Below are positions 112 to 13,501 of a stretch of 13,618 bases of DNA, one piece after another; positions within the stretch are counted from its first letter, which is position 1, and every line of letters starts with the position of its first letter. The notes under the pieces are model-generated. The model did no database searches. It saw only the letters and a program-made list of their open reading frames with translations, and was not told the DNA's origin. The stretch lies in IMG/VR virus record IMGVR_UViG_3300028532_000077; one strand, given 5' to 3'. This DNA is from a virus (Duplodnaviria > Heunggongvirae > Uroviricota > Caudoviricetes). The translations under genes and the position numbers were made by a program.

Positions 112-131
112 ATGGTGCCGATAATAGGAGT
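112..131. repeat. attL-type direct repeat (tRNA 3'-end copy)
   Basis: ATGGTGCCGATAATAGGAGT is identical to 13482-13501; it duplicates the 3'-terminal 19 nt of the tRNA-Thr gene at the other end of the window. Confidence 0.8.
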
Positions 132-273
132 AAAACACTCGATTAATCTCGTGTTAATGCCATCACCTACGACCATTACTAATTGATTGAATCTTATAGA
201 AAAATCATCATTTTCTATGCGTCACAATCAATTTTCACATTACAAACGCTCCGACACTTTAGCCGGAGATTTT

Positions 274-1551
274 ATGAGATACAAGCCTAACCAATACTTA
301 ATCTGTGATTCTTACGGTAACTACTATTTGAGGATCACGTTGCCTGTGTATATGCAGCCCTTTTTTGAAGGAAAAAGGACGTTTGTCAGAAGTCTGCACA
401 CAAGTAATCTTCGTGTTGCACGTAGAAAGCGTGATCAGATTGCAGATGAATACCATTGCTTACGGGAGAGTGTTGCCCCTGTAAACAGCACAATAGAAAA
501 CACGCTGGAACTGTTACGCAGTAAGGCTAAATACGCCAAAACAGCTACCAGAGTGCAAGATACAGCGTCTTCGTGTCCGTCATTGCTTAAAATTCTTGAA
601 ATCTACCTGACAATTAACAGCACGAAGAAGAAGCCAGCCACTTTAGCTAAGGCAAGAAAAGCGGTAGAGATGTTTCTCTCCTACCGTAAAAAGCCTGATA
701 TTGCATTGCAAGATGTAAGCCGCACCACTGTTACAGGCTGGATTGAACACATGCAAAAAACTCTTTCACAACAATCAATTGCAAATTATATCAGCCCAAT
801 GGCCCAGCTATGGGAATTAGCTTCATCACGTTACCACGATGCGCCAGAAAGGGCGCTCTCCCCCTGGCGAGGGCATAGGCTTGATGTGGCACAAAGTAGA
901 GAGAGCTACGAGGCATTTTCTAACAAAGAGCTATTGCAGGTGTTGCAAGTATTTTCCGGTAATTCAGCAGAAAACAAAGAAATGACGGCTTTGTGTCTTA
1001 TCGGTTTATATACAGGTATGCGGATCAATGAGATAGCAAGTCTCACAATAGACGATGTGAAAGAGATCGAAGGTGTGCTGTGTTTTGAAATCACACAGGG
1101 AAAAACGAAAGCTGCGGCACGTCTTGTGCCTGTGCATAGCCTTATCACTCCATTGGTGTTATCTCTTCGTGAAAAGCCTCACAATGGCTTTTTGTTCTAT
1201 CACGCCAGCATTACAGAGCGTGCTGACGGTAAACGCTCTACGTGGCATACACAACGATTTACAAGAGCTAAACGAAAGGCTTTAGGGGAAAAGGGAACAG
1301 AAAGGAAAGTGTTTCATTCTCTGAGACACGGAGTAGCACAGCTTCTTGATCGAAATCAAATTCCAGAGGACCGCATAGCTTTAATTTTGGGCCATCAGCG
1401 CGGCAATACAGAAACATTCCGCACATATAGCAAGAATGCAGCTTCTCCAGTAGAGCTTAAAAAATATATTGAGCTTTTACGCTACCCTGAAATAGAGAAA
1501 GGCTTATCAATCAATAAAAAATCAAATTTAAGGCGTAAAACAACGCCATAG
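274..1551 (+). CDS. int: Tyrosine recombinase / phage-type integrase
   Basis: C-terminal catalytic signature visible in translation: LYTGMRINE (Arg), HSLRH (His-x-x-Arg), LGHQRGNTETFRTY (His ... Tyr nucleophile). N-terminus YGNYYLRITLPVY...GKRTFVRSL resembles the arm-binding domain of phage integrases. Start chosen at ATG 274 with GGAG 5 nt upstream; ORF is open from TTG 187, ATG 217 also possible. Confidence 0.9.
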   Translation: MRYKPNQYLICDSYGNYYLRITLPVYMQPFFEGKRTFVRSLHTSNLRVARRKRDQIADEYHCLRESVAPVNSTIENTLELLRSKAKYAKTATRVQDTASSCPSLLKILEIYLTINSTKKKPATLAKARKAVEMFLSYRKKPDIALQDVSRTTVTGWIEHMQKTLSQQSIANYISPMAQLWELASSRYHDAPERALSPWRGHRLDVAQSRESYEAFSNKELLQVLQVFSGNSAENKEMTALCLIGLYTGMRINEIASLTIDDVKEIEGVLCFEITQGKTKAAARLVPVHSLITPLVLSLREKPHNGFLFYHASITERADGKRSTWHTQRFTRAKRKALGEKGTERKVFHSLRHGVAQLLDRNQIPEDRIALILGHQRGNTETFRTYSKNAASPVELKKYIELLRYPEIEKGLSINKKSNLRRKTTP

Positions 1552-1561
1552 ACGTAATAAG

Positions 1562-1594
1562 GAGGCTTCAACATAGATTGGTAGCCTCTTTTAT
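1562..1594 (+). terminator. Putative weak intrinsic terminator downstream of int
   Basis: GAGGCT (1562-1567) / AGCCTC (1583-1588) inverted repeat followed by TTTTAT; stem is short and loop is 15 nt. Confidence 0.3.
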
Positions 1595-1625
1595 GATTAT
1601 CTCGCTACATCGTTCTTTATAGGGA

Positions 1626-2282
1626 TTATTTCACTTCTCCGTCATACGTCGGAAGGGTGTCTTTAGTGGTGCTGGCTGTTCCTGCATTGGTTGGCACTCG
1701 GCTTTTTACCTGTCCGCCTGTGCTCTTAGGTGATGCGGTCTTTATAGCAATAGCGTTAGTAGTTGCATAACTCACTAATCTTATCTGTTCGAACTGCAAA
1801 TCAAACTGTAAAGCTGATTCTGTTTTATATTCGTAGTCAATGCCTGTCAGAATCATATTATCAAACGTCTTATGCTCTGTGCTTACAATAATAGGCTGTC
1901 TGGCATTCATTATTTCATCAAGATAAGCAATAGCCTGTGAACACCTGTTACCGTTCACCCCTGCACTTGATAGCATATCACCACGTAATGCTAATGGTGT
2001 TTCTGTAATAATGCCTGAAAGCATAAGTTTATTATTCTTGATCCTGACATTATCAGATACATCATTACCATCCTGCACAGGATACGATGTAACATCGGCA
2101 GAACGTGAAACCTTAGTTGCCGGAACAGCGTCAAAAGTAATAGCTTTATAACTGGCTATCGTTGATGCATTTTCGTTATTCAGGTTGCTACATATAATGG
2201 CAAATCCGTTATCAGATTTAACCTTGCTGTTAGATGTATTAATGTTAGATGTGCTGTTGATCTGACTTTCTTTGATAGCCAT
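1626..2282 (-). CDS. Hypothetical protein (218 aa), last gene of the virion-like operon; possible minor structural protein
   Basis: Long ORF with AAGGA Shine-Dalgarno about 10 nt upstream of ATG; lies 73 nt downstream of the 633-aa gene on the same strand; Ser/Thr/Asn-rich sequence with no recognisable catalytic motif. Confidence 0.7.
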   Translation of the reverse strand: MAIKESQINSTSNINTSNSKVKSDNGFAIICSNLNNENASTIASYKAITFDAVPATKVSRSADVTSYPVQDGNDVSDNVRIKNNKLMLSGIITETPLALRGDMLSSAGVNGNRCSQAIAYLDEIMNARQPIIVSTEHKTFDNMILTGIDYEYKTESALQFDLQFEQIRLVSYATTNAIAIKTASPKSTGGQVKSRVPTNAGTASTTKDTLPTYDGEVK

Positions 2283-2355
2283 TTATATTAATCCTTGTGT
2301 AATGAGCGGAAAGCAATAAATATTGCCCCCGCTTTATTATTAGTTATCGTTAAAC

Positions 2356-4257
2356 TTAGTTAACGCTACTCTGTCCTGACAACGTGCTAAGAATCAGATT
2401 CGAACTAAACTGATTGTTGTTCGCTCTGATCTCAGTGCGGATTAAATCCTGAAAGCCGGGACCGTTAGGGATGACGTTAACAGAGATCATATCACTCGGC
2501 ACCGTAACCTGTGCATTCACGTTAACAGGAGTTGCGTATTGACGTTGTAGGCTTACAGTCGGCTGATAGGCTTCTGCTTTACGTGCAACAAGGGTTGATC
2601 CGTAGCTGTTAGCATTGCCATTAATTAAATCAGTCCACCACCCTGGAACGCCGGACTGTGTTTCCTCACCGCGCACAATACGCCCTACATCTTTCGTATC
2701 GAGTCCAGTTGCATAACGAATACCTTCATTGATAATCGTTGATGGCGACCATTCCCCATCTGTAACAGCGTCCATAACCTTTTGTGTCTCAGGTCTGTTA
2801 TCATTCTCACCACGGCTAAGATGTTTATTAATCCAGCTTGTGATTTGATTCCCGTAAGAAGTCATAGAGGTCAGTAATACAGCGCCTTGTTTAGCCAAAT
2901 CCCCGAACGATGCACCAACACCATAAGCTGCATTCTGTAAGGCTTTGCTTTCTTCCGGTTTGAGTGCTGGCATGTTGGCTATGCCATCAAAGAAGCCCAA
3001 AATAGCCTGATTCGATAGTCCATCTGTCAGACGGTCAAAGGCTGTAGCTGTCTTGTTAGCTGCGCGATATTGCTCTTTCTGTGCTTCTGTCAGTAGCTGC
3101 CCGTTGTTTTCCATATCAACCATCGTTTTACGGAACTCTTCCCCATCACGGGAAAACATCTTGAGATAATGGCTGGCATCGTCTGCTAATGGTTCGATCA
3201 GGGATATGATGGCTTCTTTAGTCATTCCTCGGCGTTCACCTTCTCTCACCACGTCTTGCAGGAGTTGCAGCGGTCGCCCCTGGTAGGAAGCTATCTTATC
3301 TTTGTTCCATGCAAAGGCATTCTGAATATCATTTAATGATCCTTCCCCGCCTCGCCACTCTTTTTTCTTACTATCCCATTCAGCAGTTCGGCTTTGATGA
3401 CCAATGCGTTCGTTTAAGTCTTTGATATTGTCAGTGGTCTTGTCCACGCTTGCACTTGATACACCGTTTGCCCTCCCCCAATTAACCATTGCAGCCACCT
3501 GGTTGGAGTCTGCGCCTACCAGATCGCTCATCTTCTGCAATTCCATACGTTCACGGGCTTTTTCCATTCCAGCAGATACAGCCATACTTCCTAAGCCAAC
3601 GGCAGCGCCGCCGATAATGCCACCAACACCGCCCATCATTAACGCGCCACCGCCGCTAACACCTTCTTTGTGGAGCTTCTTAGAAGTAACTGGATATACA
3701 CCCCCAGCGGCAGCATTACGACGCGTAGCAGCGGCTGCGGCTCGTCTTTCTAATGTGATGCGGTCACGGATCAGGGCATTCATCTTCGCTTGCGATATAG
3801 CGCCGGATTCATAGAGGCGGGTTTGTTCCTTAATGTAACGTAGAGCATCGTGATATTTCTTAATATCCATCCCTTCGCCATAGCGGGAATTGTTCTTGAT
3901 GCCTTGTAACTGGCGATATGATGCAAGGCGCTTGATCTCTGCCTTTTCAGCAATTGAGGCTTGTTTAGCCTGTGCTTTAGCGAGGTTTTTAGCTTCCTGT
4001 AGCTTCTGTTTAGTGCTGGCTTTAGATGCCTGTGTCTCAGATTTAACAGCCCGCTTAACATGCTGATCATGCTGGCGCTGAATCTCTTTTCCCAGCCTCT
4101 GTAAATCTTTCTGACGTGCTGCCGCCACTTGCACAGGTTTGATCCCCTGCATCTTCTTTTGTAGCTTATCCACTTCATTCTTAGCTTTCTGTAAGCTCTT
4201 GAAATCAGTGGTAAATGTCACAACATTACTAATTCGTGAGGCGGTAATTTCTAACAT
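2356..4257 (-). CDS. Coiled-coil / glycine-zipper protein (633 aa), tape-measure-like or ejection-protein-like
   Basis: N-terminal ~170 aa are K/Q/A/E-rich heptad-like (LQKAKNEVDKLQKK..., KQKLQEAKNLAKAQAKQ); central hydrophobic Gly-rich segment GGGALMMGGVGGIIGGAAVGLGSMAVSAGM as seen in phage tape-measure and pilot/ejection proteins; no enzymatic motif recognised. Confidence 0.75.
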   Translation of the reverse strand: MLEITASRISNVVTFTTDFKSLQKAKNEVDKLQKKMQGIKPVQVAAARQKDLQRLGKEIQRQHDQHVKRAVKSETQASKASTKQKLQEAKNLAKAQAKQASIAEKAEIKRLASYRQLQGIKNNSRYGEGMDIKKYHDALRYIKEQTRLYESGAISQAKMNALIRDRITLERRAAAAATRRNAAAGGVYPVTSKKLHKEGVSGGGALMMGGVGGIIGGAAVGLGSMAVSAGMEKARERMELQKMSDLVGADSNQVAAMVNWGRANGVSSASVDKTTDNIKDLNERIGHQSRTAEWDSKKKEWRGGEGSLNDIQNAFAWNKDKIASYQGRPLQLLQDVVREGERRGMTKEAIISLIEPLADDASHYLKMFSRDGEEFRKTMVDMENNGQLLTEAQKEQYRAANKTATAFDRLTDGLSNQAILGFFDGIANMPALKPEESKALQNAAYGVGASFGDLAKQGAVLLTSMTSYGNQITSWINKHLSRGENDNRPETQKVMDAVTDGEWSPSTIINEGIRYATGLDTKDVGRIVRGEETQSGVPGWWTDLINGNANSYGSTLVARKAEAYQPTVSLQRQYATPVNVNAQVTVPSDMISVNVIPNGPGFQDLIRTEIRANNNQFSSNLILSTLSGQSSVN

Positions 4258-4291
4258 GTTAATTGTTTCCCTGTATTATGATTATTGTTTG

Positions 4292-4489
4292 TTATTGTTT
4301 TTTAGAGCAATAATATTGGATTGCCTCAAAAGTGCTGCACCCAGTCTGAAACACACGCTGCCGCACATTATTTGCATCAATTGAAAGCATTCTGCATAAG
4401 GCACTGACATTGATTATTGAGTCATCGCTAATAGCTGCCAGTTCTTTTACAGCCTTAAGAATAAAGGATTGTGGGTTTTCTGTATTCAT
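4292..4489 (-). CDS. Small hypothetical protein (65 aa)
   Basis: ORF between the 343-aa and 633-aa genes on the same strand; weak purine-rich RBS (GAGAGAAAACC); no motif recognised. Confidence 0.45.
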   Translation of the reverse strand: MNTENPQSFILKAVKELAAISDDSIINVSALCRMLSIDANNVRQRVFQTGCSTFEAIQYYCSKKQ

Positions 4490-4640
4490 TGGTTTTCTCT
4501 CACATATATATTTTTATTTGGGTTTGTAGACAGTAGAAAAACAAAAAGGGCAAAGAGATTCGTTACTGTATTTGCGCCTACAGGTTAGTTAATCCCTTTA
4601 CCCTTATTGCCCCGATGGGGAATCGTCTATTAACGCTTTA

Positions 4641-5672
4641 TTACGCAGCAGATCCGAAGATGATAGCTTGCGGAATGTTGTTTACTGGCAGATAAGATGT
4701 CTCAGTAACCACAGATGGGAATTGGAATTCATCCTTGATTAGATATTGGTGATGCAACACGGCATCTTGACCTAACTCAGCATGACGCACACCAACGCCG
4801 CTATGAAGCTGGTAACACTGTGCCGCTTTATCCATTACCGGAACAATTGCGAAACCGTTCTCTCCGATGTGAGCAACAATCTCAGGAAACATTGACACAT
4901 CAATAACAGTGATCCCACCAATCTGGAAAGAGTCATAGGCTGGGTTAGAATCAACCATACGGGTAAACAGGGCCGTAGCACTCGCATCACCTGCATATTT
5001 CACCATGTCACTGATCAGCGGGTTAGATGACAAACCATCAGCAGCAGCGCCAGCAGCAAAGATAATTACACCAGTTCGCTTTGCAGCAAGACCAGACCCC
5101 AGCTTTTCACTCTGTAAGCGCACCGCTTTACGAATAGCAAGGAACGGGTTAACAGTAGTCGATGCAAAGTCGATAGCGGGTACCGTGGTTTTAGCCTGAC
5201 CGTCGAGGAAGTCGAGATCACCTTGTCCGGCATATTCAGATTCAACTTTCAGTCCCAGCAGCGCGGTAATCAGATCCACTTCAACACGGTTTGCGTGTGA
5301 ACGGTAATGAGCCTCAGAGAAATCATTAACCGCTACCAGCATAGCATCAGAACGGTTTGGATATTGGCGGCTGTATTGTTCCAGGTCACGAGAAGTAACA
5401 GCGTTAATACTGCCGACGTGTTTCATCTGGAAAAGTTTGTTTGACCATTCCTGACGTTTAGAAGCGTTCCAGTCGCTTTGAGCGTAAGGCGAGGTTTCCC
5501 CGGCTACCTGCACAAACTGCTCAATCAGGTCGGTAAGAAGAATGCTGTTTTCTGTATGATATTGCACATCGAACAGATCGAGATTAGTAATCAGGGTATT
5601 AAGTGCATTCTCATAAGCAAATGGAGTTACTACCGCAGTATTAACGCCAAAATATGTTGATAAATCATTCAT
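4641..5672 (-). CDS. Putative major capsid-like protein (343 aa)
   Basis: Size and position match the major capsid gene of lambda-like head modules (about 340 aa, immediately after an about 120-aa gene); AAGGAAAATAAT RBS; mixed alpha/beta composition with no nucleotide-binding or catalytic motif. Assignment is from context only. Confidence 0.6.
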   Translation of the reverse strand: MNDLSTYFGVNTAVVTPFAYENALNTLITNLDLFDVQYHTENSILLTDLIEQFVQVAGETSPYAQSDWNASKRQEWSNKLFQMKHVGSINAVTSRDLEQYSRQYPNRSDAMLVAVNDFSEAHYRSHANRVEVDLITALLGLKVESEYAGQGDLDFLDGQAKTTVPAIDFASTTVNPFLAIRKAVRLQSEKLGSGLAAKRTGVIIFAAGAAADGLSSNPLISDMVKYAGDASATALFTRMVDSNPAYDSFQIGGITVIDVSMFPEIVAHIGENGFAIVPVMDKAAQCYQLHSGVGVRHAELGQDAVLHHQYLIKDEFQFPSVVTETSYLPVNNIPQAIIFGSAA

Positions 5673-5686
5673 TATTATTTTCCTTG

Positions 5687-6070
5687 TTAAGTCGTAGGGA
5701 TCGCAAGTTCTTCATAACCAGCAATTACAAAGCCGAGAGATTGCAGTTTTGCAATAACACTTGCCTTTTCCATGCTGTTAAATTCAATCCCATCTTCAGC
5801 CAGAATAACGAAAGTAGGATGTGCAACCACTACGCTTTCCTGTCCTTCATAAGCCGGTTCAACTACTACGTGAGCAATATCAGATGCGGTTGTTGCTTTG
5901 GTGCCATCGGCTTTCAGCAAAGCCCCGACAATAAGATCGTCAGTGAGAGGTGAAGCCAGTTTGACGAGGCGATCTTGCAGCACTGGATCAGCAGCGTAAG
6001 CTACTACCTTACAGCGTGAACGGGAGTTATCCGCATTCACTGCTTTTAATTTTCCATATGGGTTAGCCAT
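5687..6070 (-). CDS. Putative head decoration / scaffold-like protein (127 aa)
   Basis: Stop lies 14 nt from the start of the 343-aa gene; nearly identical AAGGAAAATAAT RBS context; size and position resemble gpD-type decoration proteins upstream of major capsid genes. Context only. Confidence 0.5.
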   Translation of the reverse strand: MANPYGKLKAVNADNSRSRCKVVAYAADPVLQDRLVKLASPLTDDLIVGALLKADGTKATTASDIAHVVVEPAYEGQESVVVAHPTFVILAEDGIEFNSMEKASVIAKLQSLGFVIAGYEELAIPTT

Positions 6071-6074
6071 AAGA

Positions 6075-6272
6075 TTATTTTCCTTTCAGTTGTTTAATTT
6101 TAGATTTAAGGGCATCAGCAAGACTAACCGCATCAGCCGATTTAAATAATTGAGCAGTGGTAGAACGAAGACTTTCGGGAGTAACTCCCAACAGTGCGGC
6201 AACCTTAATGAGGTTTTCATCACTAACAATCATCGTTTCCCCGTCTTTGCTGATAATCATTTCTTGTTTCAT
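6075..6272 (-). CDS. Small hypothetical protein (65 aa from ATG 6272; ORF open to 6314)
   Basis: First gene of the leftward virion-like operon; AGGAA 8 nt upstream of ATG 6272; stop is 4 nt before the next start; the longer ORF start at 6314 would run into an upstream hairpin. Confidence 0.55.
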   Translation of the reverse strand: MKQEMIISKDGETMIVSDENLIKVAALLGVTPESLRSTTAQLFKSADAVSLADALKSKIKQLKGK

Positions 6273-7266
6273 AAATAACGTTCCTGTTAGTGCCAGACAA
6301 ATAAAAAGCCCCAATGCCGTAAGAGGTTAATTCTGACCAGCAAAGGGGCTTTAACGTGCGGGCAATTACATAATTGATAAGTTAAACTATAAGAGGATTA
6401 AACATATCAGCAAATACACTTTTTAAATATACTTGATGATATGCTTAAAGAGTGAATATCAGACCTTAGAAAGGAAGGCTCTTAGGAGTTTGCCACTGGA
6501 ATCACTAAGATCTGATATTCTGGGTGCGGTGGCTAACCGCTGCCTGTTTTTGCTGTGGATGCAACAAAGTAAGGCTTTAAGGAATCACTATTCCAATTCT
6601 CATCTACTCACAGATCAAATTTTAATAGGATTAACTACACCAACAATAATCTACCGTTTCAGAAAAAGCGTTTTTACAACCAAAGATTATAGATTTGCAG
6701 TCTATAAAACCCGTTTTGCTATCAATATTTCCAAAGGTTATTGCACAATTCTTAGCTAAACTCTCTACTTGCGGCTAACGCTACGCAGATGATAGTTTTT
6801 TGACAACAACTTAATAGATTATTCTGTTACTAACTTCTGTCATTAAATAAGAGTTTAATGATGTTAGTAAATAGTTATAAAATATAACTATCAGTGTAAG
6901 GCTCTTTAATGTTTTCGGACAAAATAAGGAGCTTTAGGATAAGCATAGATGAAAAATAAGAGCGGGAAGGGCAAGGAGATAACACCTACCCGCTTTTATC
7001 AAAATTAAGCACAATGCCTAACAACATTCATCAACACAACGTAGAAACAATCAACAATCAAAGAGGGAGTTATGATTATTCTAAAACTTCTTGAGAGATG
7101 GAAGGTAATATTTGTTAGAGGTTAATGCCACTCAACCCTTGAGGCTATCACCTTCCATATGCAGGGATTTATGACAGTAGAAGGATTAACACCAGTCAAA
7201 ACCTTTTTATCTACCCCTAATATCATTATATAATGAAATCGCTATAAATGCAAATGATTTTCATTG

Positions 7267-7575
7267 TCATTTAGAGAAAATAGCACTTTTTGCTAAATCA
7301 TCTACTAATTGCTGAATCTCTTCACTTGCAGCCTTTAACGTGCTGGCGGTGTCTGTGATGGTTTGAGTACACAGCCTGACATCGTCCTTAGATAGCTCTA
7401 AATCGCTCACCAGAGAGATGAAATCGTCAAGGCTTACATTCACCTTCATTAAGCTACTAACGCATTGAGAGAGCGTGTAATCGCATAAATCTGAATAGGC
7501 TTGATTGATACGTGTCTGTAGGGCGATCATCCGATCCGAAAGAGTGTCCATAACTTCCAGAATGTTGTCTGTCAT
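7267..7575 (-). CDS. Hypothetical small acidic helical protein (102 aa)
   Basis: ATG overlaps the stop of the upstream ORF (ATGA coupling at 7572-7575); AGGAG upstream; no motif recognised. Confidence 0.65.
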   Translation of the reverse strand: MTDNILEVMDTLSDRMIALQTRINQAYSDLCDYTLSQCVSSLMKVNVSLDDFISLVSDLELSKDDVRLCTQTITDTASTLKAASEEIQQLVDDLAKSAIFSK

Positions 7576-7844
7576 TGTGCAATCTCTCCTTGATCTGCTG
7601 ATTCCATCTCTTGCTGAATCTGTTTAGCCTTGTTTAGTGCAATCTGTAGCGGTATACGATAGGTTGCAATGTCATCCAGCACATCATCAAGCAAGGCAAA
7701 ATCATTTTCTTCTTTTGCTCGTTCAGCCAGTGAAATAAACACTTCTGCAAGTTGTTTTGCTTCTTTAAAAAATGTTGTTTCTAATAGTTGATAGTTAATC
7801 ATTATTTTTCCTTTTTCGATTATTTTCATTGGGCGCTTATACAT
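7572..7844 (-). CDS. Hypothetical small helical protein (90 aa; likely true start at 7802, 76 aa)
   Basis: In-frame ATG at 7802 has a good AAGGA RBS at 7-nt spacing, whereas the ATG at 7844 has GGGAG only 1 nt away; translationally coupled to the downstream 102-aa ORF. Confidence 0.65.
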   Translation of the reverse strand: MYKRPMKIIEKGKIMINYQLLETTFFKEAKQLAEVFISLAERAKEENDFALLDDVLDDIATYRIPLQIALNKAKQIQQEMESADQGEIAQ

Positions 7845-7859
7845 ACTCCCATCATTTTA

Positions 7860-8243
7860 TTAGTTAGAACGTTTGTTAGAAGCTAATGTATCTTCTAAAT
7901 GAGCCATCAGATCGACTTCCGATGCACCACCTACACAATTATTGAAAGCGTTAAATCCCAAAAAATGATGATAGGAGCTAAACCCTAAAAGTTGCCAACG
8001 CTTCAGAGTGCCATCAGAAATTATTGTTTGTTTTCTTGTTCTTGGGCGAAAGTAAACGCCTGGCATTGACTGGATTATTTCTAATTCTTTATTACTTAAT
8101 TCAGGGGATTCTATTTCAAGAATAAATATTATCTCTTCCCCTGGAATTTCATTATTGGTATGTGTCGGTGGACGTTGTCTTTTTGAATTGAAATTACTGT
8201 TTTTTTCAATACGTTTTAAGTTATTCTTTTTCTTTCTTCCCAT
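7860..8243 (-). CDS. Hypothetical protein with basic N-terminus (127 aa)
   Basis: GAGGG RBS 5 nt upstream of ATG; N-terminus MGRKKKNNLKRIEKNSNFNSKRQR is strongly basic (possible nucleic-acid binding); no catalytic motif recognised. Confidence 0.65.
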   Translation of the reverse strand: MGRKKKNNLKRIEKNSNFNSKRQRPPTHTNNEIPGEEIIFILEIESPELSNKELEIIQSMPGVYFRPRTRKQTIISDGTLKRWQLLGFSSYHHFLGFNAFNNCVGGASEVDLMAHLEDTLASNKRSN

Positions 8244-8378
8244 TTTCCCTCTTTTTATGTGGATTATAAAAACTTAATGCCATAGTTACGATGAATATCG
8301 CCATAAATGCACTTGCCATATGTATTGCCCGATCTGTTGTTACTGATTGTTTGTGATGTTATAAATCATTTATTCTCC

Positions 8379-9047
8379 TTAGAATGGTATTGAATCGTAT
8401 ATTTCACTTTTTTCTCTTAGAGATATTATCAGATCGTGAAAAGCCTGTTTCTCAAGATAGATATTCTTTGAATCTAATGCTCGTTTTACAAAATCTTCTG
8501 TTTCTTCGTGCGGTGGTTTCTTCTTATCAAGGGAAAGAAGCCAAGTAAAAATTTCGGGCCGCTCAGGGAACTCTGATTCCTGTGTTTCTTCTTCAATGAT
8601 GATTTCTGAAACATTCAATATTTCATTAGATTCGTCTTCTTTCTCAGAAGGATCAGGTAGTGATGACTCTCCAGGGGGAGTAATATGTGCATCTGTGAAT
8701 GGTAATGCTTTATAGAGTGATGTTTGCCCGTCCCGAGCCTCTACAGAAAGAACTCCCATATCAACAAACATATTTATAATATTGCGAACCTGGCGATCAC
8801 TAACCATTCCAATATTAGATAATGTTTTTTGAGTGGCGTAACATTCTTGCCCTTGTTCATTGAATCCAGCTATATAGCTATAGATTTCAACGGCTGGCAG
8901 TGTAGCGGTGTATTCATTACCTGACGGTGAGAACCACTTTTTAAACATCTTCAACCACTGCTCAACGACTACATATTTTTGTTTACCATCTTTCTGATTT
9001 AGACATTTGGCTTTCGCTTCGGCAATTGTTTTGATATTTTTGATCAT
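8379..9047 (-). CDS. Winged-HTH DNA-binding protein (222 aa), candidate replication initiator or regulator
   Basis: Strong AGGAGG RBS before ATG 9047; segment YATQKTLSNIGMVSDRQVRNIINMFVDMGVLSVEARDGQTSLY has the pattern of a winged helix-turn-helix; acidic C-terminal tail (EDESNEILNVSEIIIEEETQESE). Confidence 0.75.
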   Translation of the reverse strand: MIKNIKTIAEAKAKCLNQKDGKQKYVVVEQWLKMFKKWFSPSGNEYTATLPAVEIYSYIAGFNEQGQECYATQKTLSNIGMVSDRQVRNIINMFVDMGVLSVEARDGQTSLYKALPFTDAHITPPGESSLPDPSEKEDESNEILNVSEIIIEEETQESEFPERPEIFTWLLSLDKKKPPHEETEDFVKRALDSKNIYLEKQAFHDLIISLREKSEIYDSIPF

Positions 9048-9171
9048 TTAGTTCCTCCTTTGTAAGGACTGTAATTAGTAATTCATTAACAAGTTTTGGA
9101 ATTGATTTCCCTTCTGCCTTTGCACGATTTAACAACGCGTTATAAGTTGCAGAATCAAAATTAATATTCAT
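8983..9171 (-). CDS. Ribbon-helix-helix (CopG/Arc-like) DNA-binding protein (62 aa)
   Basis: MNINFDSATYNALLNRAKAEGKSIPKLVNELLITVL fits the beta-strand then two-helix RHH pattern; GGAGAAGGAG RBS; 3' end overlaps the start of the wHTH gene by 65 nt in another frame. Confidence 0.65.
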   Translation of the reverse strand: MNINFDSATYNALLNRAKAEGKSIPKLVNELLITVLTKEELNDQKYQNNCRSESQMSKSERW

Positions 9172-9194
9172 TTGGTTTTCTCCTTCTCCTGTTA

Positions 9195-9371
9195 TTATTC
9201 TTTCTCTGCTTTACGCAGTTCATCAATAATTTTTAGTGCATCGTCAAAACATTTTTCACGCTCTGGATAACCACAGCGTCGCGCTGTGTTCCTATTCATT
9301 CTTACCCTAAAGCGGTTGATCTCACCACGTTTCCAGGCTTCAACTACATCTTGAGAAGTGAAATACTTCAC
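9195..9371 (-). CDS. Small hypothetical protein (58 aa, GTG start), first gene of the regulatory operon; not in the supplied ORF track
   Basis: GTG at 9371..9369 preceded by a perfect AGGAGG at about 8 nt; in-frame to TAA at 9197..9195; basic protein (…RFRVRMNRNTARRCGYPERE…). Confidence 0.5.
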   Translation of the reverse strand: MKYFTSQDVVEAWKRGEINRFRVRMNRNTARRCGYPEREKCFDDALKIIDELRKAEKE

Positions 9372-9494
9372 TAATTAACCTCCTATTCTATTTGGTTAAA
9401 AGAAAAAGACACCTTGCAAGCCTCTTGGGCTTCAAAGTGCGGTGCATTGGTTTAATTATTTAGAGGATAGGAATGTTTTCCTGCCCCTAATATT

Positions 9495-9523
9495 ACTTTA
9501 CCATAACTAAAGGCTTTTGTCAA
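9495..9523 (-). promoter_or_regulatory. Candidate sigma70 promoter for the leftward regulatory operon
   Basis: On the minus strand: TTGACA (9523..9518), 17-bp spacer, TAAAGT (9500..9495); about 120 nt upstream of the GTG at 9371. Confidence 0.4.
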
Positions 9524-9787
9524 CCCCCACCCATAAAATATTGATCATTTTTCAGTATGTTATGATTTTGCTTAGCAATTCGTGCTCTTCTGTGTGATGC
9601 TATTCTTCCTTATTCTCTAAAACGCGTTCTAACGAGGTTTTGATAAAAACAATACATTCCCTTATGTAATGACAGTTTAGCTCGCCTACGGCTTGATTTA
9701 AGCGGTAGAAACTTATTTAACCTTCAACTACTAAAACCATTCTTTTTTGTTTGTTGTTGGTTGTTGTCTGTGTCTATGTGCTAACAT

Positions 9788-10060
9788 CGCTAACGCGTAG
9801 CACACAAGGTTATTGCACTCGTCAGAGTATTGCACAATAGATTTTCTCTTAAATAGATTGATGATCGTTAGATTGGCGTAAGCCTCATCAATGGAACTAT
9901 TGAAGCGCACAGCGCATAGACACTAACAACCATTCGCTTACGCTCAGGTTATTGCACAAGTAAATTTCAATCGTTAGATGGTAGTTAGTTAATTATCGTT
10001 CTGCGCACAGCGCAAGACTATTTAGCCTTACGCAAGCCGTAGGCTATTTGCACATAGTAG
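9788..10060. repeat. Modular imperfect tandem duplication (about 100-bp period) with recurring short motifs
   Basis: TCGTTAGAT at 9865 and 9971; GCGCACAGCGCA at 9905 and 10003; GGTTATTGCAC at 9808 and 9947 with variants at 9827 and 10043; GCTAACGC at 9788. Confidence 0.6.
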
Positions 10061-10200
10061 ATTACATATTCGTTGTGAGCGGCATTAGCGAACATAGATC
10101 TACTAACTAACATCAACAAACAAAAACTATGTGTTATGACAAGCAGTCTAACGACTAACACTCTAACTTGTGCAAGGTTCTGGCGAATGCCAATAGATTA

Positions 10201-10235
10201 AGGGATAGTCGTTAGACTCCCTAACGGGTATCCCT
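10201..10235. repeat. Nested perfect inverted repeat (stem-loop)
   Basis: AGGGATA gt CGTTAG actcc CTAACG gg TATCCCT: outer 7-bp and inner 6-bp perfect stems; followed by about 60 bp of AT-rich DNA (10236-10295). Confidence 0.6.
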
Positions 10236-10295
10236 ATAATTATTCTTATAAAGATAAAAAAGAATTATATTATATAGTTTAATTGTAGTATTGTC

Positions 10296-10394
10296 GGAAA
10301 TCATTTCCTAGGTGATAGGAACTCATTTCCTAGGTAGGTAGGAAACCACTTCCACGGTTATTTCCTAAATAGATCGGAACTCATTTCCCAGGTG
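10296..10394. repeat. Iteron-like array: four 19-bp direct repeats, each with internal dyad symmetry
   Basis: GGAAATCATTTCCTAGGTG (10296), GGAACTCATTTCCTAGGTA (10318), GGAAACCACTTCCACGGTT (10341), GGAACTCATTTCCCAGGTG (10376); spacing 22, 23 and 35 bp; each copy contains GGAA-N5-TTCC. Confidence 0.7.
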
Positions 10395-10860
10395 TTATTT
10401 ATACTTATCGGGTATCAGACTTGATAGGGGTAGCTCACAGTGACCTACCGTTACATCCAATCATCACATAACATCTGTGCAATGATCTTCTAAAAGTGTT
10501 TCTTGCTACCAAAATTAAACATCTAAAACAGGCTTAAATTCAATGTAATTGATGATTAATCCCTGTGTAATTCCTACGTAAAAATCCAATGAAAAGTAGC
10601 TTAAAAAGTGCAATGTTAGCTTTCTTCACTTTTGCGTCATCATCAGCAAAGCCTTATGTTATGCGGCATATAGCGCATCACTGCAAAATTGTTGCTCAAT
10701 AAACGTTCTATCATTTGTCGAACAAGTTCTTTCACGTGTTGAAAATTTATGTTTAAATTTGCTTTCAATCTTTAATGTGCAATCACTATCAACATAAAAA
10801 TAAAAAACCTTCTATTATATTTCATAGCATACAAAAGTCAATAGAAGCCCTCTCGTGCTC

Positions 10861-11244
10861 CTACGTAAAAAATCCACCACTTTTCCCCTTATACATCAAC
10901 TCAAGGCGTTCTATGTGTTCCTTAGTGCATATTACGATTATTATGTTAAATGGATTTTGGACTATATTTTGACCTGCACCCGCATAAACACTGGTTTCAT
11001 CGCTTACAGCCCTTGTGAGACGTGGTGCTGTTTCTAGCATCTGATCCGACATAAAACCGATCATTCTCGTGTTTAGTGAAAGTTTAGTGAGATACATTAC
11101 AGAAAGGCTTTCTGTGTAATGATTTAATAGGTAAAAACGATGTTGATTACGCAAGAAAATTCCTTGCTGATATTTGGGGATTCTGGATTTTCCAGATCGG
11201 GGGGCGGTGAAAATCGCGTTAAGCACTTCTCGCAATCTAGCCAT
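10861..11244 (-). CDS. Questionable ORF (127 aa)
   Basis: Open frame only; no purine-rich RBS before the ATG (CCCTTCCC context); translation has no recognisable features. Listed because nothing else occupies this interval. Confidence 0.2.
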   Translation of the reverse strand: MARLREVLNAIFTAPRSGKSRIPKYQQGIFLRNQHRFYLLNHYTESLSVMYLTKLSLNTRMIGFMSDQMLETAPRLTRAVSDETSVYAGAGQNIVQNPFNIIIVICTKEHIERLELMYKGKSGGFFT

Positions 11245-11260
11245 AAGGGAAGGGATAAAG

Positions 11261-11300: not shown

Positions 11301-11460
11301 TTTATTTACCTTAATTTAAAAATAGCCTTATAAATCAATAAGATACAGGACTATCTGTTTATATTTTGATCAATTAAATCAAGTTTAATACCCTTAAACC
11401 ACCTGAAAATAACCTTAAATACCCCAATAATTAATTTTAACGATTCCTGTGCTCTCTCCT

Positions 11461-11531: not shown

Positions 11532-11549
11532 CAAGAGCTTCTCTAACTG

Positions 11550-12101
11550 TTATTTTTGATTGAGCTTACATCGATCCCATTGTTCTGTCGTTCTTGTGAT
11601 ACGATCGCTTATTGCAAAATTTAATAGCCAAGAATCATAAGCATAAACCTTGCTTTTATCATCTGCCATCATAAACTTGCCGTTAGCATTCAGTTTTGGC
11701 GATATCAAATATGTTCCATTTAATCTGTTAGCCTTGAAGCTATCTGCATATAAAGTTACTTGTGCGTATCCCTGAACACGTAATGCCCCTAAACGTCCGT
11801 TTTCGATTGATGCAATAGAGTATTGGCAAAGATAATTTTTGGCAGCAGGAGTCGTTTTCACTCCTTCAGTTTTTCGTGAATTATTTGATTGCGAGCTTCG
11901 AATAGAGGATGAAGGATAAGAGTATGAATGATTTTTATAAGATGAAGGGGCATAAGAGCCAATCCGGCACGTCTTACCAACAGCTATACACGAGTTACCA
12001 CAAGGTATTCCTTTTTTGCAGTTTTTAGCAACTGCGGTAGAAGTTCCCCCTACAAACAACGTTGTAAAAATCATCATCCTCACAAATGCAGACCTGCGCA
12101 T
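11550..12101 (-). CDS. Secreted Cys-motif protein of unknown function (183 aa)
   Basis: Strong GGGAGG RBS 5 nt before ATG; N-terminal signal peptide (MRRSAFVRMMIFTTLFVGGTSTAVA, Ala-x-Ala cleavage context); mature N-terminus C-KKGIP-C-GNS-C-IAVGKT-C has four spaced cysteines; then a Ser/Tyr-rich linker. Confidence 0.8.
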   Translation of the reverse strand: MRRSAFVRMMIFTTLFVGGTSTAVAKNCKKGIPCGNSCIAVGKTCRIGSYAPSSYKNHSYSYPSSSIRSSQSNNSRKTEGVKTTPAAKNYLCQYSIASIENGRLGALRVQGYAQVTLYADSFKANRLNGTYLISPKLNANGKFMMADDKSKVYAYDSWLLNFAISDRITRTTEQWDRCKLNQK

Positions 12102-12390
12102 ATAACCTCCCTTTTTAGATTATTCTTATGCTATACACTTGCTTAAAAAAATAAAAGTGCCCTCTAACCTTTATCGTTCTCCATCACAATTTGAGAAGTA
12201 AGAGCAGCAACCTCAAGCGATGATCACGTTTGCGCCGATTTCAGAGAAAAAGACAGTAACTGAACTCACTATGAAGGCTAAACGTATCTTTACACTTGAT
12301 GAAAACGTTCAAAAAACAACCTAACCCCAAAATTCAACAAATAACAACATATTGTTTTTAAAAGAAAATTAAATCTACATCAAATATTGG

Positions 12391-12419
12391 TTGACGTAGA
12401 TTGAGGTGAATAGTAGACT
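12391..12419 (+). promoter_or_regulatory. Candidate sigma70 promoter for the small plus-strand ORF
   Basis: TTGACG (12391-12396), 17-bp spacer, TAGACT (12414-12419). Confidence 0.35.
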
Positions 12420-12495
12420 ATTAGGGTAAATTGCCATTATTGCAACATCATTTAATGCATGTTCTAATCCTCCTATCCCAAAACCGGAGGAAGTT

Positions 12496-12654
12496 ATGCA
12501 TTTACTTTCAAAACATCTTCACACTATTCACTTTCTCGTTATTGATGTATTCATTGTGGCTATTAGTTACCGCATTTGCATCGCTTCCAGTGAAGAGATG
12601 GACGCTGTTGCAATTATTGCTCAAGCAATGGCGATGTTAACTAAACGACTTTAA
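12496..12654 (+). CDS. Small protein (52 aa) with a hydrophobic core
   Basis: ATG 12496 has GGAGG 5 nt upstream; encodes MHLLSKHLHTIHFLVIDVFIVAISYRICIASSEEMDAVAIIAQAMAMLTKRL; the SD can pair with TCCTCC 13 nt upstream (12468-12473). This frame differs from the 12431..12640 ORF in the supplied track. Confidence 0.4.
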   Translation: MHLLSKHLHTIHFLVIDVFIVAISYRICIASSEEMDAVAIIAQAMAMLTKRL

Positions 12655-12668
12655 TAATTTCACTATCA

Positions 12669-12710
12669 GGCGCATAAACACATCTTTGATCGCTGGATGT
12701 GTTATGCGCC
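12669..12710. terminator. Strong hairpin between convergent small genes (candidate bidirectional terminator)
   Basis: GGCGCATAAACACATC (12669-12684) pairs with GATGTGTTATGCGCC (12696-12710): about 15 bp with one bulge and an 11-nt loop. No long T-run on either side, so termination efficiency is uncertain. Confidence 0.5.
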
Positions 12711-12720
12711 TACTGGTGAT

Positions 12721-12873
12721 TCAATCCTTAAGCCATTTCAACTCACTAAGGAGTTTTCTTTCTTCGTTCTCTCTCTGTTTACGCTCTAGCCAGGCTTTTC
12801 CTTCTGGCGTAGACAGGAACTTACGAGCGTGAATCTTGCGGTTATTACGTTTGATAGCTGCAATGTTTTTCAT
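12721..12873 (-). CDS. Small basic protein (50 aa); not in the supplied ORF track
   Basis: ATG at 12873..12871 with AGAGG 7 nt upstream; encodes MKNIAAIKRNNRKIHARKFLSTPEGKAWLERKQRENEERKLLSELKWLKD; stop TGA at 12723..12721. Confidence 0.4.
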   Translation of the reverse strand: MKNIAAIKRNNRKIHARKFLSTPEGKAWLERKQRENEERKLLSELKWLKD

Positions 12874-13481
12874 CGTGTGCCTCTGTATTCATATGAAAAT
12901 TAACAAGTTACATACTACACAGGGAGACTACGCATAAAACACAATACAAGTAAAGATACATTTTCAAGACAATAGGAGCCATAAAGCGCCTTTGATGGGC
13001 TACCCCAAAAAATAAGCGCCGTAGGCGTATCCACTAAAAAGGGCTTTTTCACAAAAGCTATGAAGTCTTAGCAGTTCTTCTCTTATCAGGCACCCGTTGT
13101 ACTCCGGTGGACGAAACCGTGCTAGAGCTTGATTCTTTCCCGATCAAGTTAGGTTTTGAAGAGGTGGGCTTTAATCCACTATGCACTTAAAACTACTCTT
13201 CCCATCATTTAGCCTGTTTATCCTCTGCAACGTCATCTCGACGTGTAGCATCATTGGACACCGCGCCAGGTGTGGAACATCTTGCTAAGAGTTTTGGTAG
13301 AAGGTTTAGAGACGGTGGCACGTCTTCCAGCTTCAAAGGAACTTGTTACGAGGTTGAGCCTGGGAACTACTCGCCCATACGTGTTACACTACCAAAGCCC
13401 ATAACAACGTATAGGCGTTTGTAAGTGATAACAGAAGATACAATTTCTTAGAGAAGCTAAGCTAAGTTATTGATTTTCTTG

Positions 13482-13501
13482 ATGGTGCCGATAATAGGAG
13501 T
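13482..13501. repeat. attR-type direct repeat overlapping the tRNA-Thr 3' end
   Basis: Identical to 112-131. Confidence 0.8.

Follow-up and report, generated by a model that had tools for sequence, protein, structure and literature searches.

A 13.4-kb integrative island at an Escherichia coli tRNA-Thr gene is a probable satellite of virulent Stephanstirmvirinae phages

The window analysed here, a stretch of 13,618 nucleotides, carries an island of about 13.4 kb at a tRNA-Thr(CGT) gene (positions 13483-13558, minus strand). The island is bounded by an exact 20-bp direct repeat, ATGGTGCCGATAATAGGAGT; the distal att core (112..131) lies beside the integrase gene and the tRNA-proximal core (13482..13501) overlaps the 3' end of the tRNA gene. 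Beyond the 20-mer the likeness extends to 25 of 28 positions, and by our own arithmetic the chance expectation for such exact 20-mers in 13.6 kb is about 1e-4. The tyrosine integrase gene (274..1551, plus strand) encodes DUF6538, SAM-like and catalytic domains and matched PF00589 (Phage_integrase, 4e-17), PF20172 (4e-9) and phrog_1 (1e-32); its frame is open from a TTG at 187, and 274 is the position that matches the RefSeq start in a relative, L001. These results bear out an earlier note on this DNA, which had described perfect 20-bp repeats, one of them over the tRNA 3' end, as the limits of an integrase-bearing island of this size.

The same note had suggested a search for an empty tRNA-Thr site. 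Such a site was found: many complete E. coli genomes have window 1-131 and 13502-13558 joined without interruption (98.9% identity), among them that of strain GE3, where the gene order is paoD, LysR fragment, thrW, proA and the island is absent. The island has its own recombinase and att sites and is missing from related genomes, as expected of a discrete integrative element. Exact searches of viral and metagenome contigs for the predicted attP junction gave zero matches, and the IMG/VR matches to the island were prophage-region predictions from isolate genomes.

The block of virion-like genes recognised previously was found to encode a major capsid protein, a decoration-sized protein, a tape measure and a tail-tube initiator, all on the minus strand. 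These capsid and tail-core genes occupy 4.7 kb. The structural genes are 25-63% identical to, and syntenic with, those of the Stephanstirmvirinae (phi92, phAPEC8), which are virulent T=13 myoviruses of ~150 kb, and the phage-like order is retained, with decoration followed by capsid and tape measure followed by tube initiator. Protein roles for the island homologues follow the phi92 structure paper (PMC13450770).

The 343-aa major capsid protein (4641..5672) is of the lambda gpE/HK97-fold type (phrog_29, 1e-4), and its relatives at 42-48% identity bear PF03864 and are named major capsid protein E. Pairwise comparison with the phAPEC8 capsid protein gave 25% identity over 179 aa (E 3e-4), a weak but significant relationship, the capsid protein of the Yersinia member matched the phage protein over its full length (E 1e-12), and PDB profile matches were weak, to capsid chains that included Phi92_gp124. 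Capsid dN/dS was 0.08-0.14 across the family, a sign of purifying selection. The gene immediately upstream, in the position of phage gp115/gp123 (132/130 aa), encodes a 127-aa candidate cement or decoration protein (5687..6070), assigned via position and size only. Its profile match to phrog_2680 ('head decoration', E 0.07) was weak, as was its colinear hhalign alignment (E 0.0096), and its AF2 model was unusable (pLDDT 42); the gene is kept in nearly all members, with dN/dS mostly 0.09-0.3.

The first gene of the capsid operon (6075..6272, minus strand) encodes 65 aa and has an alignable ORF of equal size and position in 11 of 11 loci. In the Yersinia member the corresponding protein (96 aa) shares 41% identity over its match to the N-terminal 91 aa of the phage head scaffold (E 2e-13), and the window's own product had zero detectable similarity to that scaffold; a mini-scaffold is a possible role. 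Twenty-eight nucleotides before the operon's start codon, a G+C-rich hairpin with a T-run is followed by a TAACA-N5-GTTA motif (6276..6345, minus strand). The hairpin and T-run were present in nine of 11 family loci, with differing stem sequences, and the motif is conserved, with a second copy at an upstream promoter in L005, L015 and L016. Its inferred role is that of a terminator gate or an operator.

Between the capsid and tape measure genes lies a conserved 65-aa protein (4292..4489, minus strand), with homologues at the matching position in L005, L016, L015 and L011 and zero similarity to phAPEC8 gp105. The tape measure homologue (2356..4257, 633 aa; phrog_16051, 3.6e-72), found in all family members, shares 32% identity with its phAPEC8 counterpart over 450 aa, and its tblastn matches were mostly to Stephanstirmvirinae-type phages of ~150 kb. 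It is colinear with the phage proteins from the conserved N-terminus (MLEI..VTF) to the C-terminus (LS.LSGQSS) and is without a charged insertion of ~30-45 aa that the phage tape measures carry. The tube initiator homologue ('Dit-like'/'baseplate'; 1626..2282; Pfam Dit_like, 5e-28) is 63% identical to phAPEC8 gp103, encoded directly 3' of the phage tape measure gene; its counterparts are a PaulScherrer product annotated 'tail tube initiator protein' and phi92 gp135 (PMC13450770). Among the family loci it occurs only in the window, L005 and L016 lineages.

The Walker A patterns [AG]xxxxGK[ST] and GxxGxGK were absent from every stop-to-stop frame of at least 30 aa. The 20 largest predicted ORFs (47-633 aa), scanned with Pfam, PHROGs and NCBIfam, gave no match to any family of terminases, portals, proteases, primases, helicases or lysis proteins, and no sheath, tube or baseplate wedge genes were found in the profile scans of island ORFs. 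The earlier note had seen no P-loop ORF, had judged terminase, helicase, primase, portal and lysis genes to be absent and had named terminase, portal or primase homologues as evidence against its reading; the searches agreed with it on each count. An incomplete virion and packaging gene set is a generic mark of a phage satellite, and the island has this property. The claimed lack of an NTPase held for this island and failed for the family, since in two relatives, L010 and L018, the replication slot is occupied by a DEAD/ResIII helicase-like protein of ~490 aa. Likewise, the claimed compactness applied to the structural block (1626-6314) and the regulatory block (7267-9371) and did not extend to about 4 kb, roughly a third of the island, that has no convincing ORF (6315-7266, 9372-10860 and 12102-13481).

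Two further minus-strand genes encode proteins without an assigned function. An accessory (cargo) protein of 183 aa (11550..12101) matched phrog_2578 and phrog_14768, both of unknown function (E 1e-17), had no PADLOC match and, on our reading of the translation, begins with a hydrophobic stretch resembling a signal sequence. A conserved 127-aa protein with a basic N-terminus (7860..8243) has homologues in seven other loci and formed only 31 representative clusters among 1.84 billion proteins; Pfam, PHROG, PADLOC and PDB searches gave zero assignment, and the AF2 model had a pLDDT of 57.

The replicon comprises a replication-initiator-like protein, Rep (8379..9047, minus strand, 222 aa; PF13730, 6e-5; phrog_270, phrog_186 and phrog_8102, replication initiation), and four 22-23-bp iterons with the core GGAAnTCATTTCC, which form a candidate origin of replication (10292..10393). 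The N-terminal domain of Rep is a winged helix of the HTH_36 or phage O-DnaD-like type, and an ATPase is absent. Similar iterons accompany a Rep 72% identical to that of the window in L005, whereas L001 has another Rep allele and a different five-copy array in the same place; the iterons switch together with the Rep allele.

A core of integrase, tape measure, capsid and decoration-like protein recurs as islands of 10-13 kb. The shared core and gene order, with intact ORFs, were found at 10 other loci in ten enterobacterial genera, with hosts in Klebsiella, a second E. coli lineage, Citrobacter, Buttiauxella, Kluyvera, Phytobacter, Scandinavium, Raoultella and Yersinia, and the structural module was present in 295 of 5,426 complete E. 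coli genomes. Integrase homologues lie at the same island end in every member. The relatives occupy other integration sites, such as tRNA-Gly in Klebsiella, and one copy is plasmid-borne. The same genes within a much larger intact prophage had been named as contrary evidence; the relatives examined were 10-13-kb islands bordered by ordinary chromosomal genes, and none had a larger prophage around them.

Two stretches of island DNA are 93-98% identical to Stephanstirmvirinae phages, which points to recent DNA exchange with them. One (8635-8952), within the Rep gene, is 93% identical to Phapecoctavirus phages, and the other (9019-9185) is 98% identical to Justusliebigvirus phages. The latter overlaps the gene for a 62-aa probable small transcriptional regulator (8983..9171, minus strand; weak phrog_11622 'transcriptional regulator'), which has 98% amino acid identity (53 aa) to bas60_0101 of PaulScherrer, a Justusliebigvirus, and which we read as a putative ribbon-helix-helix protein. 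The phi92-like genus Justusliebigvirus appears to be the best helper match for the window.

A packaging-signal candidate of ~75 bp (11168..11245, plus strand) matches the inner edge of the helper direct terminal repeat. Positions 11196-11241 share 91% identity with phi92 318-363 over 46 nt (E 1e-7 in a search of 2.3 Gb), and 61 phage records were matched. The phi92 terminal repeat is taken from its GenBank annotation (1-343, 343 bp), which places the repeat boundary, GCGTTA/AGCAC, between window positions 11221 and 11222. A second island lineage bears the Phapecoctavirus version of the edge. The edge variants differ in step with phage genus, and the phi92, PaulScherrer and Phapecoctavirus forms all occur among islands whose capsid genes are 99-100% identical. 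In the island a match was found to the inner (right) edge alone and none to the left edge, and in contig searches the packaging-like site occurred only on long chromosomal contigs.

The Phapecoctavirus phage Mt1B1_P17 encodes a protein, QNJ49226, with two winged-helix domains and an endonuclease-like C-terminus. Residues 1-105 share 99-100% identity with the Rep allele found in L001-type islands, and residues 119-210 are 88-90% identical to the window Rep (Rep residues 30-122). The C-terminus matched phrog_681 endonuclease (2e-18) and, below Pfam thresholds, MUG113 (4e-4) and T5orf172 (0.04); among its tblastn matches are proteins from other phages annotated as homing or GIY-YIG endonucleases. 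In the ICP1 nuclease Odn, the DNA-binding part is copied from the PLE initiator RepA and fused to a T5orf172/GIY-YIG domain (PMC8263062). The domain architecture of QNJ49226 fits such an origin-directed nuclease, an activity that is predicted here.

Structural homology to one virulent lineage, the copy of the terminal-repeat edge and the phage nuclease strengthen a satellite reading, and the island is probably an integrated phage satellite with virulent Stephanstirmvirinae (phi92/phAPEC8-type coliphages) as helpers. The earlier note had favoured a maintained, non-autonomous, satellite-like island over a decaying prophage, and the recurrent core, the capsid dN/dS of 0.08-0.14 and the empty site are in agreement with it. 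That the island is the remnant of a larger prophage with few structural genes left is very unlikely: the ~4 kb of poorly coding DNA, the interruption of some short ORFs near the tRNA end relative to relatives and the prophage-like label given by IMG/VR pipelines would suit a remnant, but the reduced gene set and its order are kept over ten genera with intact ORFs and a dN/dS of about 0.1, zero relatives lie inside a larger prophage, the two att repeats match exactly, an unoccupied site was found, and the homologous phages are strictly virulent 150-kb myoviruses without an integrase module. It is highly improbable that the island is a self-sufficient miniature temperate virus with unrecognised packaging or portal proteins among its unannotated ORFs. 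Roughly ten ORFs without an assignable function would favour such a virus, but all except the cargo protein are smaller than 130 aa, and sheath, tube, portal and baseplate wedge are absent despite the contractile-tail-type tape measure and tube initiator. The P-loop is absent from all ORFs, and every tailed-phage packaging ATPase known to us requires one.

The diverged capsid, tape measure and tube initiator might instead be dominant-negative decoys against Stephanstirmvirinae assembly, encoded by a resident, unpackaged anti-phage island that spreads only via ordinary recombination or generalised transduction. Such an island would fit the limitation of the structural homologues to components that co-assemble with helper proteins and the failure of the contig searches to find packaged or circular forms, and the apparent phage counter-measure shows conflict, not necessarily hitch-hiking. 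Island-borne interference with tail assembly has a precedent (PMC11364771). The decoy explanation accounts neither for the copy of the terminal-repeat edge and its tracking of phage variants nor for an island that has an integrase, att sites and a Rep-iteron replicon of its own and occupies several integration sites, and we consider it unlikely. To our knowledge, all well-studied satellites combine interference and hitch-hiking; since the two coexist in them, the decoy explanation is more a subset of the satellite model than an alternative to it.

Under the satellite model, we infer excision, packaging and small capsids. The island would reside at thrW between its 20-bp att cores with its own tyrosine integrase, a step with computational support, until helper infection led to excision and to replication from the four iterons (10292-10393) via the winged-helix initiator; borrowed replisome proteins are proposed because the island has no ATPase of its own. 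One operon would supply the small protein, the cement-like protein, the HK97-type capsid protein, the 65-aa protein, the tape measure and the tube initiator. The capsid module would form shells sized for 13.4 kb on the helper portal, protease and scaffold, with which a capsid protein ~25% identical to the helper's would have to function, and at the centre of the helper baseplate the helper pair would give way to the island's tape measure and tube initiator. The island tape measure keeps helper-like N- and C-termini and is nearly equal in length. Helper terminase would then recognise the ~75-bp edge copy (11168-11245), with a predicted cut at 11221/11222, and package island units. Some helpers may counter through the Phapecoctavirus fusion of two Rep domains to a GIY-YIG-type endonuclease, presumably cutting the island origin.

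We conclude that the island most probably belongs to a new satellite family; no paper describing it was found in the literature searched. More tentatively, and with slightly greater doubt than confidence, we propose that both the shell (capsid and cement) and the tail core (tape measure and tube initiator) are replaced and the rest stolen, that packaging proceeds through the copied repeat edge, and that helpers independently evolved a two-headed origin-directed nuclease from two Rep alleles. If true, this would be an arms race in E. coli comparable to that between PLE and ICP1. Phages of the helper type are used for therapy.

PLEs are restricted to V. cholerae and are marked by a large serine recombinase, a RepA_N initiator, TcaP and NixI. 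The present island has a tyrosine recombinase, an HTH_36/phage-O-like rather than a RepA_N initiator and Enterobacteriaceae hosts, and no similarity to PLE genes emerged from any of the general scans. PLE and, on our reading, the present element are 13-18 kb integrative islands dependent on a virulent myovirus; each has a replicon of DNA-binding initiator and iterons that is swapped as a module, and in each case a chimeric nuclease of the helper copies the DNA-binding part of the island initiator (Odn, PMC8263062; here QNJ49226). QNJ49226 differs in having two island-derived domains at 88-100% identity, whereas Odn has one at 42%. According to PMC10945586, PLE takes the ICP1 coat protein and resizes the shell via the scaffold TcaP; in contrast, the capsid protein here is island-encoded, as are a tape measure and a tube initiator.

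Like the cf-PICIs, the island is a small tRNA- or chromosome-integrated element of Enterobacteriaceae with its own HK97-fold capsid protein, for which a helper would supply the rest. As Alqurainy et al. (in 2023) and SatelliteFinder are said to define them, cf-PICIs encode an entire head set of portal, protease, head-tail connectors and small terminase and take only tails, from temperate helpers. The own-capsid property is shared, whereas portal, prohead protease, connectors and small terminase were undetected in the island (Pfam, PHROGs, NCBIfam), which has tail-core genes and probably virulent helpers. Of the gene set of classical PICIs (int, alpA, a primase-replicase module and the packaging-redirection genes terS, ppi, rpp and cpm) only the integrase was found in it; its initiator is an O/DnaD-like winged helix without primase or helicase, and there were no AlpA or TerS matches.

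The P4-like satellites are also integrative, of 10-13 kb, with their own integrase and replication functions; they carry a helper packaging signal (cos in P4, a candidate terminal-repeat edge here) and a capsid-surface protein (Psu in P4, a cement-like candidate here). P4 resizes the helper capsid protein via Sid and has a gene for a large primase-helicase. Searches of the island (Pfam, PHROGs, NCBIfam) gave no match to sid, psu, delta, epsilon, alpA or alpha, and the likely helper of the island differs in being virulent, with direct terminal repeats. The PICMIs of Vibrionaceae, as presented in PMC10803314, are small integrative satellites of virulent phages, as the island is proposed to be; their reduced gene content is described there as without capsid-remodelling genes, whereas the island devotes 4.7 kb to capsid and tail-core genes.

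The single tRNA of the window, tRNA-Thr(CGT), was located at 13483-13558 on the minus strand by ARAGORN and Rfam; the Rfam scan of the window returned nothing else. A 28-nt repeat pair was detected by a repeat finder at 109-136 and 13479-13506, the central 20 nt of which, ATGGTGCCGATAATAGGAGT, are identical at 112-131 and 13482-13501, with the right copy overlapping the 3' end of the tRNA. An empty-site query, made by fusing window 1-131 to 13502-13618, was searched against complete E. coli genomes. The fused junction was contiguous in many of these genomes (98.9% identity), and in E. coli GE3 the gene order was paoD, a LysR fragment, thrW and proA with nothing intervening. The 13.4-kb stretch is therefore a discrete insertion at thrW, which is also the integration site of P22/Sf-type phages. 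These results confirmed the position at tRNA-Thr and the perfect 20-bp repeats described in the earlier note, and supplied the unoccupied tRNA-Thr site that it had expected in related strains.

Several other features of the boundaries were recorded. The 60 nt past the 5' end of the tRNA (13559-13618) did not match the thrW-proA spacer of L001, a related E. coli island, and past 13558 there was no alignment in any complete E. coli genome; the host or local context of the window differs from the reference arrangement. Window 13061-13421 is conserved among the islands and is open on both strands in two of them, L029 (91 codons) and L039 (104 codons), with non-ATG starts; both the window and L001 have an interrupted frame. 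Its interpretation as a pseudogene was disfavoured because both strands are open and the starts are non-ATG, and the region is probably an att arm or other non-coding DNA. The 166-kb plasmid NZ_CP126938.1 of APEC strain E19019 carries a further copy, which spans window 123-13501 at 96% identity and is broken by IS3 elements, besides the one on the chromosome. Other strains with the island include ATCC 43886, MFDS1001074 and O157:H16 98-3133.

Scans of the 20 largest ORFs against Pfam, PHROGs and NCBIfam identified the integrase, which was the sole NCBIfam match, and no terminase, portal, protease, primase, helicase, sheath, tube or lysis gene; a regular-expression scan of all six frames of the window found no Walker A motif, and PADLOC reported no defence genes. 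The absence of P-loop proteins and of terminase, portal, primase, helicase and lysis genes, previously judged by eye, thus held up. The description of the island as compact was accurate for 1626-6314 and 7267-9371, but not for approximately 4 kb (6315-7266, 9372-10860 and 12102-13481) in which there was no convincing gene.

The structural genes, all on the minus strand, point to one group of phages. A 218-aa tube-initiator homologue (1626-2282; Pfam Dit_like, 5e-28) is 63% identical to phAPEC8 gp103, and the phage gene that follows the tape measure is annotated as a tail tube initiator. The adjacent 633-aa tape measure homologue (2356-4257; phrog_16051, 3.6e-72) shares 32% identity over 450 residues with the 662-aa phAPEC8 tape measure, and its tblastn matches were mostly to ~150-kb myoviruses (Phapecoctavirus, Justusliebigvirus and relatives). 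In a seven-way alignment the island and phage tape measures were colinear and had common ends (N-terminal MLEI..VTF..D..S, C-terminal LS.LSGQSS); a charged insertion of ~30-45 aa in the phage proteins was missing from the island proteins. The 343-aa major capsid protein (4641-5672) was assigned through its 42-48% identity to relatives with a PF03864 domain and the name major capsid protein E. Its match to the 333-aa phAPEC8 capsid protein was weak but significant (25% over 179 aa, E 3e-4), and a PDB profile search gave weak matches to capsid chains, Phi92_gp124 among them.

Directly upstream of the capsid gene is a 127-aa cement or decoration candidate (5687-6070). A decoration gene of 130-132 aa likewise lies immediately upstream of the capsid gene in phi92/phAPEC8-type phages; profile-profile comparison of the two proteins gave E 0.0096 at a probability of 4%, the PDB profile search with the island protein yielded nothing informative, and its AF2 model, built from shallow E. 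coli alignments, had a pLDDT of 42. Cryo-EM of phi92 identified gp123 as the cement protein, gp124 as the T=13 capsid protein and gp135 as a hexamer on the hub, around the C-terminus of the tape measure (PMC13450770). On the basis of the phage gene order and these roles, the island would have two interacting pairs (cement/capsid and tape measure/tube initiator), arranged as in the phage. The window copy of the small first ORF of the capsid operon showed no similarity to the phage head scaffold, nor did the 65-aa ORF resemble phAPEC8 gp105.

Related islands were surveyed among contigs encoding capsid homologues, with one genome scanned per species. A conserved order was found: variable regulatory and replication genes, a ~127-aa protein, a non-coding gap, a small ORF, a ~125-aa protein, the capsid gene, a ~65-aa ORF, the tape measure, an optional tube initiator and a DUF6538 integrase. 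It was present in Klebsiella, a second E. coli lineage (at another site), Citrobacter, Buttiauxella, Kluyvera, Phytobacter, Scandinavium, Raoultella and Yersinia. The Yersinia capsid protein gave a full-length match to a phage capsid (E 1e-12), and the small upstream ORF of this member shared 41% identity with the N-terminal 91 residues of the phage head scaffold. The conserved ~127-aa protein fell into 31 small unannotated clusters in an exhaustive HMMER search, had no Pfam or PDB assignment, and gave an AF2 model with a pLDDT of 57 from shallow E. coli alignments.

Two readings that tie the island to a larger prophage were weighed against this survey. If it were part of a much larger intact prophage, some relative should have the same genes in that setting; the surveyed islands were always flanked by ordinary chromosomal genes and none lay within a larger prophage. 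Decay of a prophage is at odds with the persistence of one arrangement across genera and with dN/dS values of 0.08-0.14 for the capsid gene in unsaturated pairs (mostly 0.09-0.3 for the 125-aa gene); the structural genes of the window and L001 are nearly identical, making dN/dS uninformative for that pair. The view that the element is maintained was thereby upheld. Of 5,426 complete E. coli genomes, 295 had the structural module, with at least 80% of it present in 86. In the O104:H4 outbreak strains NC_018658.1 and NZ_HF572917.1 the capsid half was present (98% identical over window 4242-6272) without a window-type tape measure or tube-initiator half, which suggests that the two halves recombine independently.

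DNA shared with the phages was found at two kinds of location. By megablast against phage genomes, window 8635-8952 and 9019-9185 were 93-98% identical to Phapecoctavirus and Justusliebigvirus, where the counterparts sit in blocks of small early genes; a 62-aa ORF (8983-9171) was 98% identical to bas60_0101 of phage PaulScherrer, and other small genes were common to several related islands and phi92/phAPEC8-type phages. The right third of the island, which is poor in genes, matched 61 phage records in a sensitive blastn search; these were predominantly of Stephanstirmvirinae type (with Escherichia, Justusliebigvirus, Klebsiella and Citrobacter labels) and included four phi92-sized records labelled Campylobacter. 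The matched block was window 11196-11241 (91% over 46 nt, E 1e-7), extending to 11168-11245 in Klebsiella phages. In phi92 it corresponds to 318-363. That record gives the left direct terminal repeat as 1-343 and the right copy is identical, so that the conserved block straddles the inner repeat edge, ...GAAAATCGCGTTA/AGCAC..., where the slash marks the edge. Since the bases at this edge are identical in the island, the cut is predicted to fall between 11221 and 11222. For the left edge of the phi92 repeat, no counterpart was found in the window.

At the same relative position and orientation, the island of the second E. coli lineage (L005) has a block that shares 81% identity with the equivalent part of Phapecoctavirus genomes, where it lies no more than a few hundred bases from an end of the record. 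In a six-way alignment of this edge the window grouped with phi92 and PaulScherrer, and L005 with Ro121lw and KKP3954; TGATATTTG and CGTTAAGC were invariant. Of the islands with capsid genes 99-100% identical to that of the window, one had the exact phi92 variant, one the PaulScherrer variant and one the Phapecoctavirus variant. We infer that the copied edge would serve as a packaging signal suited to the local helper. Searches of viral and metagenome contigs did not find the predicted attP junction (13481 joined to 132), and they placed the packaging-like site in long contigs only.

Two further observations concern terminal repeats. A Klebsiella island at tRNA-Gly (L002, 5956-6001) had a weak 46-nt match, 87.5% identical (E 1e-4), to T5-like (Epseptimavirus) phages. 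The matched stretch belongs to the long terminal repeat of these phages and, for several records, is ~500 bp or less from the record start; the tape measure of this island is phAPEC8-like. A Fur-box-like sequence lies beside a promoter-like site at window 7225-7265 (minus strand), downstream of a 102-aa ORF, and near-consensus Fur boxes occur within the terminal-repeat region of the phages, immediately to the left of the packaging-like block (phage records L024, ~262-290, and L021, PaulScherrer, 44718-44743).

The replication slot is modular. In the window it encodes a 222-aa winged-helix initiator (Rep) without an ATPase, and elsewhere initiators of 189 or ~275 aa or a ~490-aa DEAD/ResIII helicase-like protein; because of the latter, the lack of an NTPase holds for the window but is not a defining trait of the family. 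Four iterons of 22-23 bp lie at 10292-10393. Those of L005, whose Rep is 72% identical to the window Rep, are similar, and L001 has a different Rep allele with five different iterons in the same place (array at L001 14412-14550). The palindromic iteron core GGAAnTCATTTCC resembles a hairpin core, GGCGGGAAACCATTTCCCGCC, present in at least six copies in PaulScherrer (L021 34426-42821) between the promoter and ribosome-binding site of early genes; the likeness may be due to chance or may mark a site for a shared regulator.

Some phages of the putative helper group encode a chimeric protein related to these initiators. QNJ49226 (328 aa, Phapecoctavirus Mt1B1_P17) combines a pair of HTH_36 winged helices with a C-terminal domain matching phrog_681 'endonuclease' (2e-18) and, below threshold, Pfam MUG113 and T5orf172; in tblastn the C-terminal domain matched proteins of T5-like, jumbo and other phages that are annotated as homing or GIY-YIG endonucleases. 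The first DNA-binding region (residues 1-105) shares 99-100% identity with the N-terminus of the L001-type Rep, the second (residues 119-210) shares 88-90% with the window-type Rep, and the linker GESSLPDPSEKE is common to QNJ49226 and island Rep. Full-length proteins of this type were found in six phage records; phages muut and inny, like Mt1B1_P17, are positive for the nuclease. The architecture, an initiator-derived DNA-binding part joined to a nuclease, is that of ICP1 Odn, in which a domain 42% identical to the PLE RepA_N is joined to a T5orf172 nuclease that cuts the PLE origin at iterons (PMC8263062). As a putative counter-measure, the phage nuclease appears to be directed against both replicon types together.

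Upstream of the first capsid-operon gene, by 25-45 nt, nine of 11 loci had a G+C-rich hairpin with a T-run, the stem sequences differing, followed by a TAACA-N5-6-GTTA motif that was repeated at an upstream promoter in three loci. This weakly suggests gated read-through or an operator. TAACA-N5-GTTA was rejected as a shared late promoter, there being no enrichment upstream of phage genes, and a stretch of 18 nt identical between the island and a phage intergenic region was attributed to a terminator tail. A 14-nt motif, AGGTTATTGCACAA, occurs four times, with one copy in the gap upstream of the capsid operon (6735-6748) and three in the early regulatory region (9807-9820, 9824-9837 and 9946-9959); a pair at 122-bp spacing is kept in L001 and L005, and the copies are a candidate operator set.

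Taken together, these data make it likely that the island is a satellite of Stephanstirmvirinae phages, which supports the phage-satellite-like interpretation of the earlier note and sharpens it to a particular group of helpers; the individual mechanistic steps are held with less confidence. To our knowledge, satellites of strictly virulent phages comprise very few systems (PLE-ICP1, PICMIs and MiniFlayer), and the characterised E. coli satellites (P4-like, PICIs and cf-PICIs) all have temperate helpers. Phages of the phi92/phAPEC8 group are popular for therapy and are represented in the BASEL collection. If the reading is correct, ~5% of complete E. coli genomes harbour a parasite of this group, the carriers including relatives in O104:H4 outbreak strains, with related islands in many other Enterobacteriaceae, and the islands would be expected to alter the host range, burst size and gene transfer of these phages. 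The phage nuclease would exemplify the Odn strategy independently for a second time, its donor sequences being near-identical and still identifiable. The unusual gene content, a capsid protein without a portal together with a tape measure and tube initiator, bears on the extent to which a satellite can replace parts of a virion, and also on DNA recognition by terminases that make direct terminal repeats.

The literature searched, which left out most subscription journals, held no description of the island, of Stephanstirmvirinae satellites or of an Odn-like gene of coliphages; since this coverage is incomplete, no claim of priority is made for the island. Its gene content falls outside the definitions of P4-like satellites, PICIs, cf-PICIs, PLEs and PICMIs. 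The PLE is closest in working, given the inferred virulent helper, the modular Rep-iteron replicon and the Odn-like response of the phage, and the cf-PICIs resemble the island in having their own capsid protein. Three features set the island apart from all five: a capsid protein unaccompanied by a portal, a tape measure together with a tube initiator, and a copied terminal-repeat edge.
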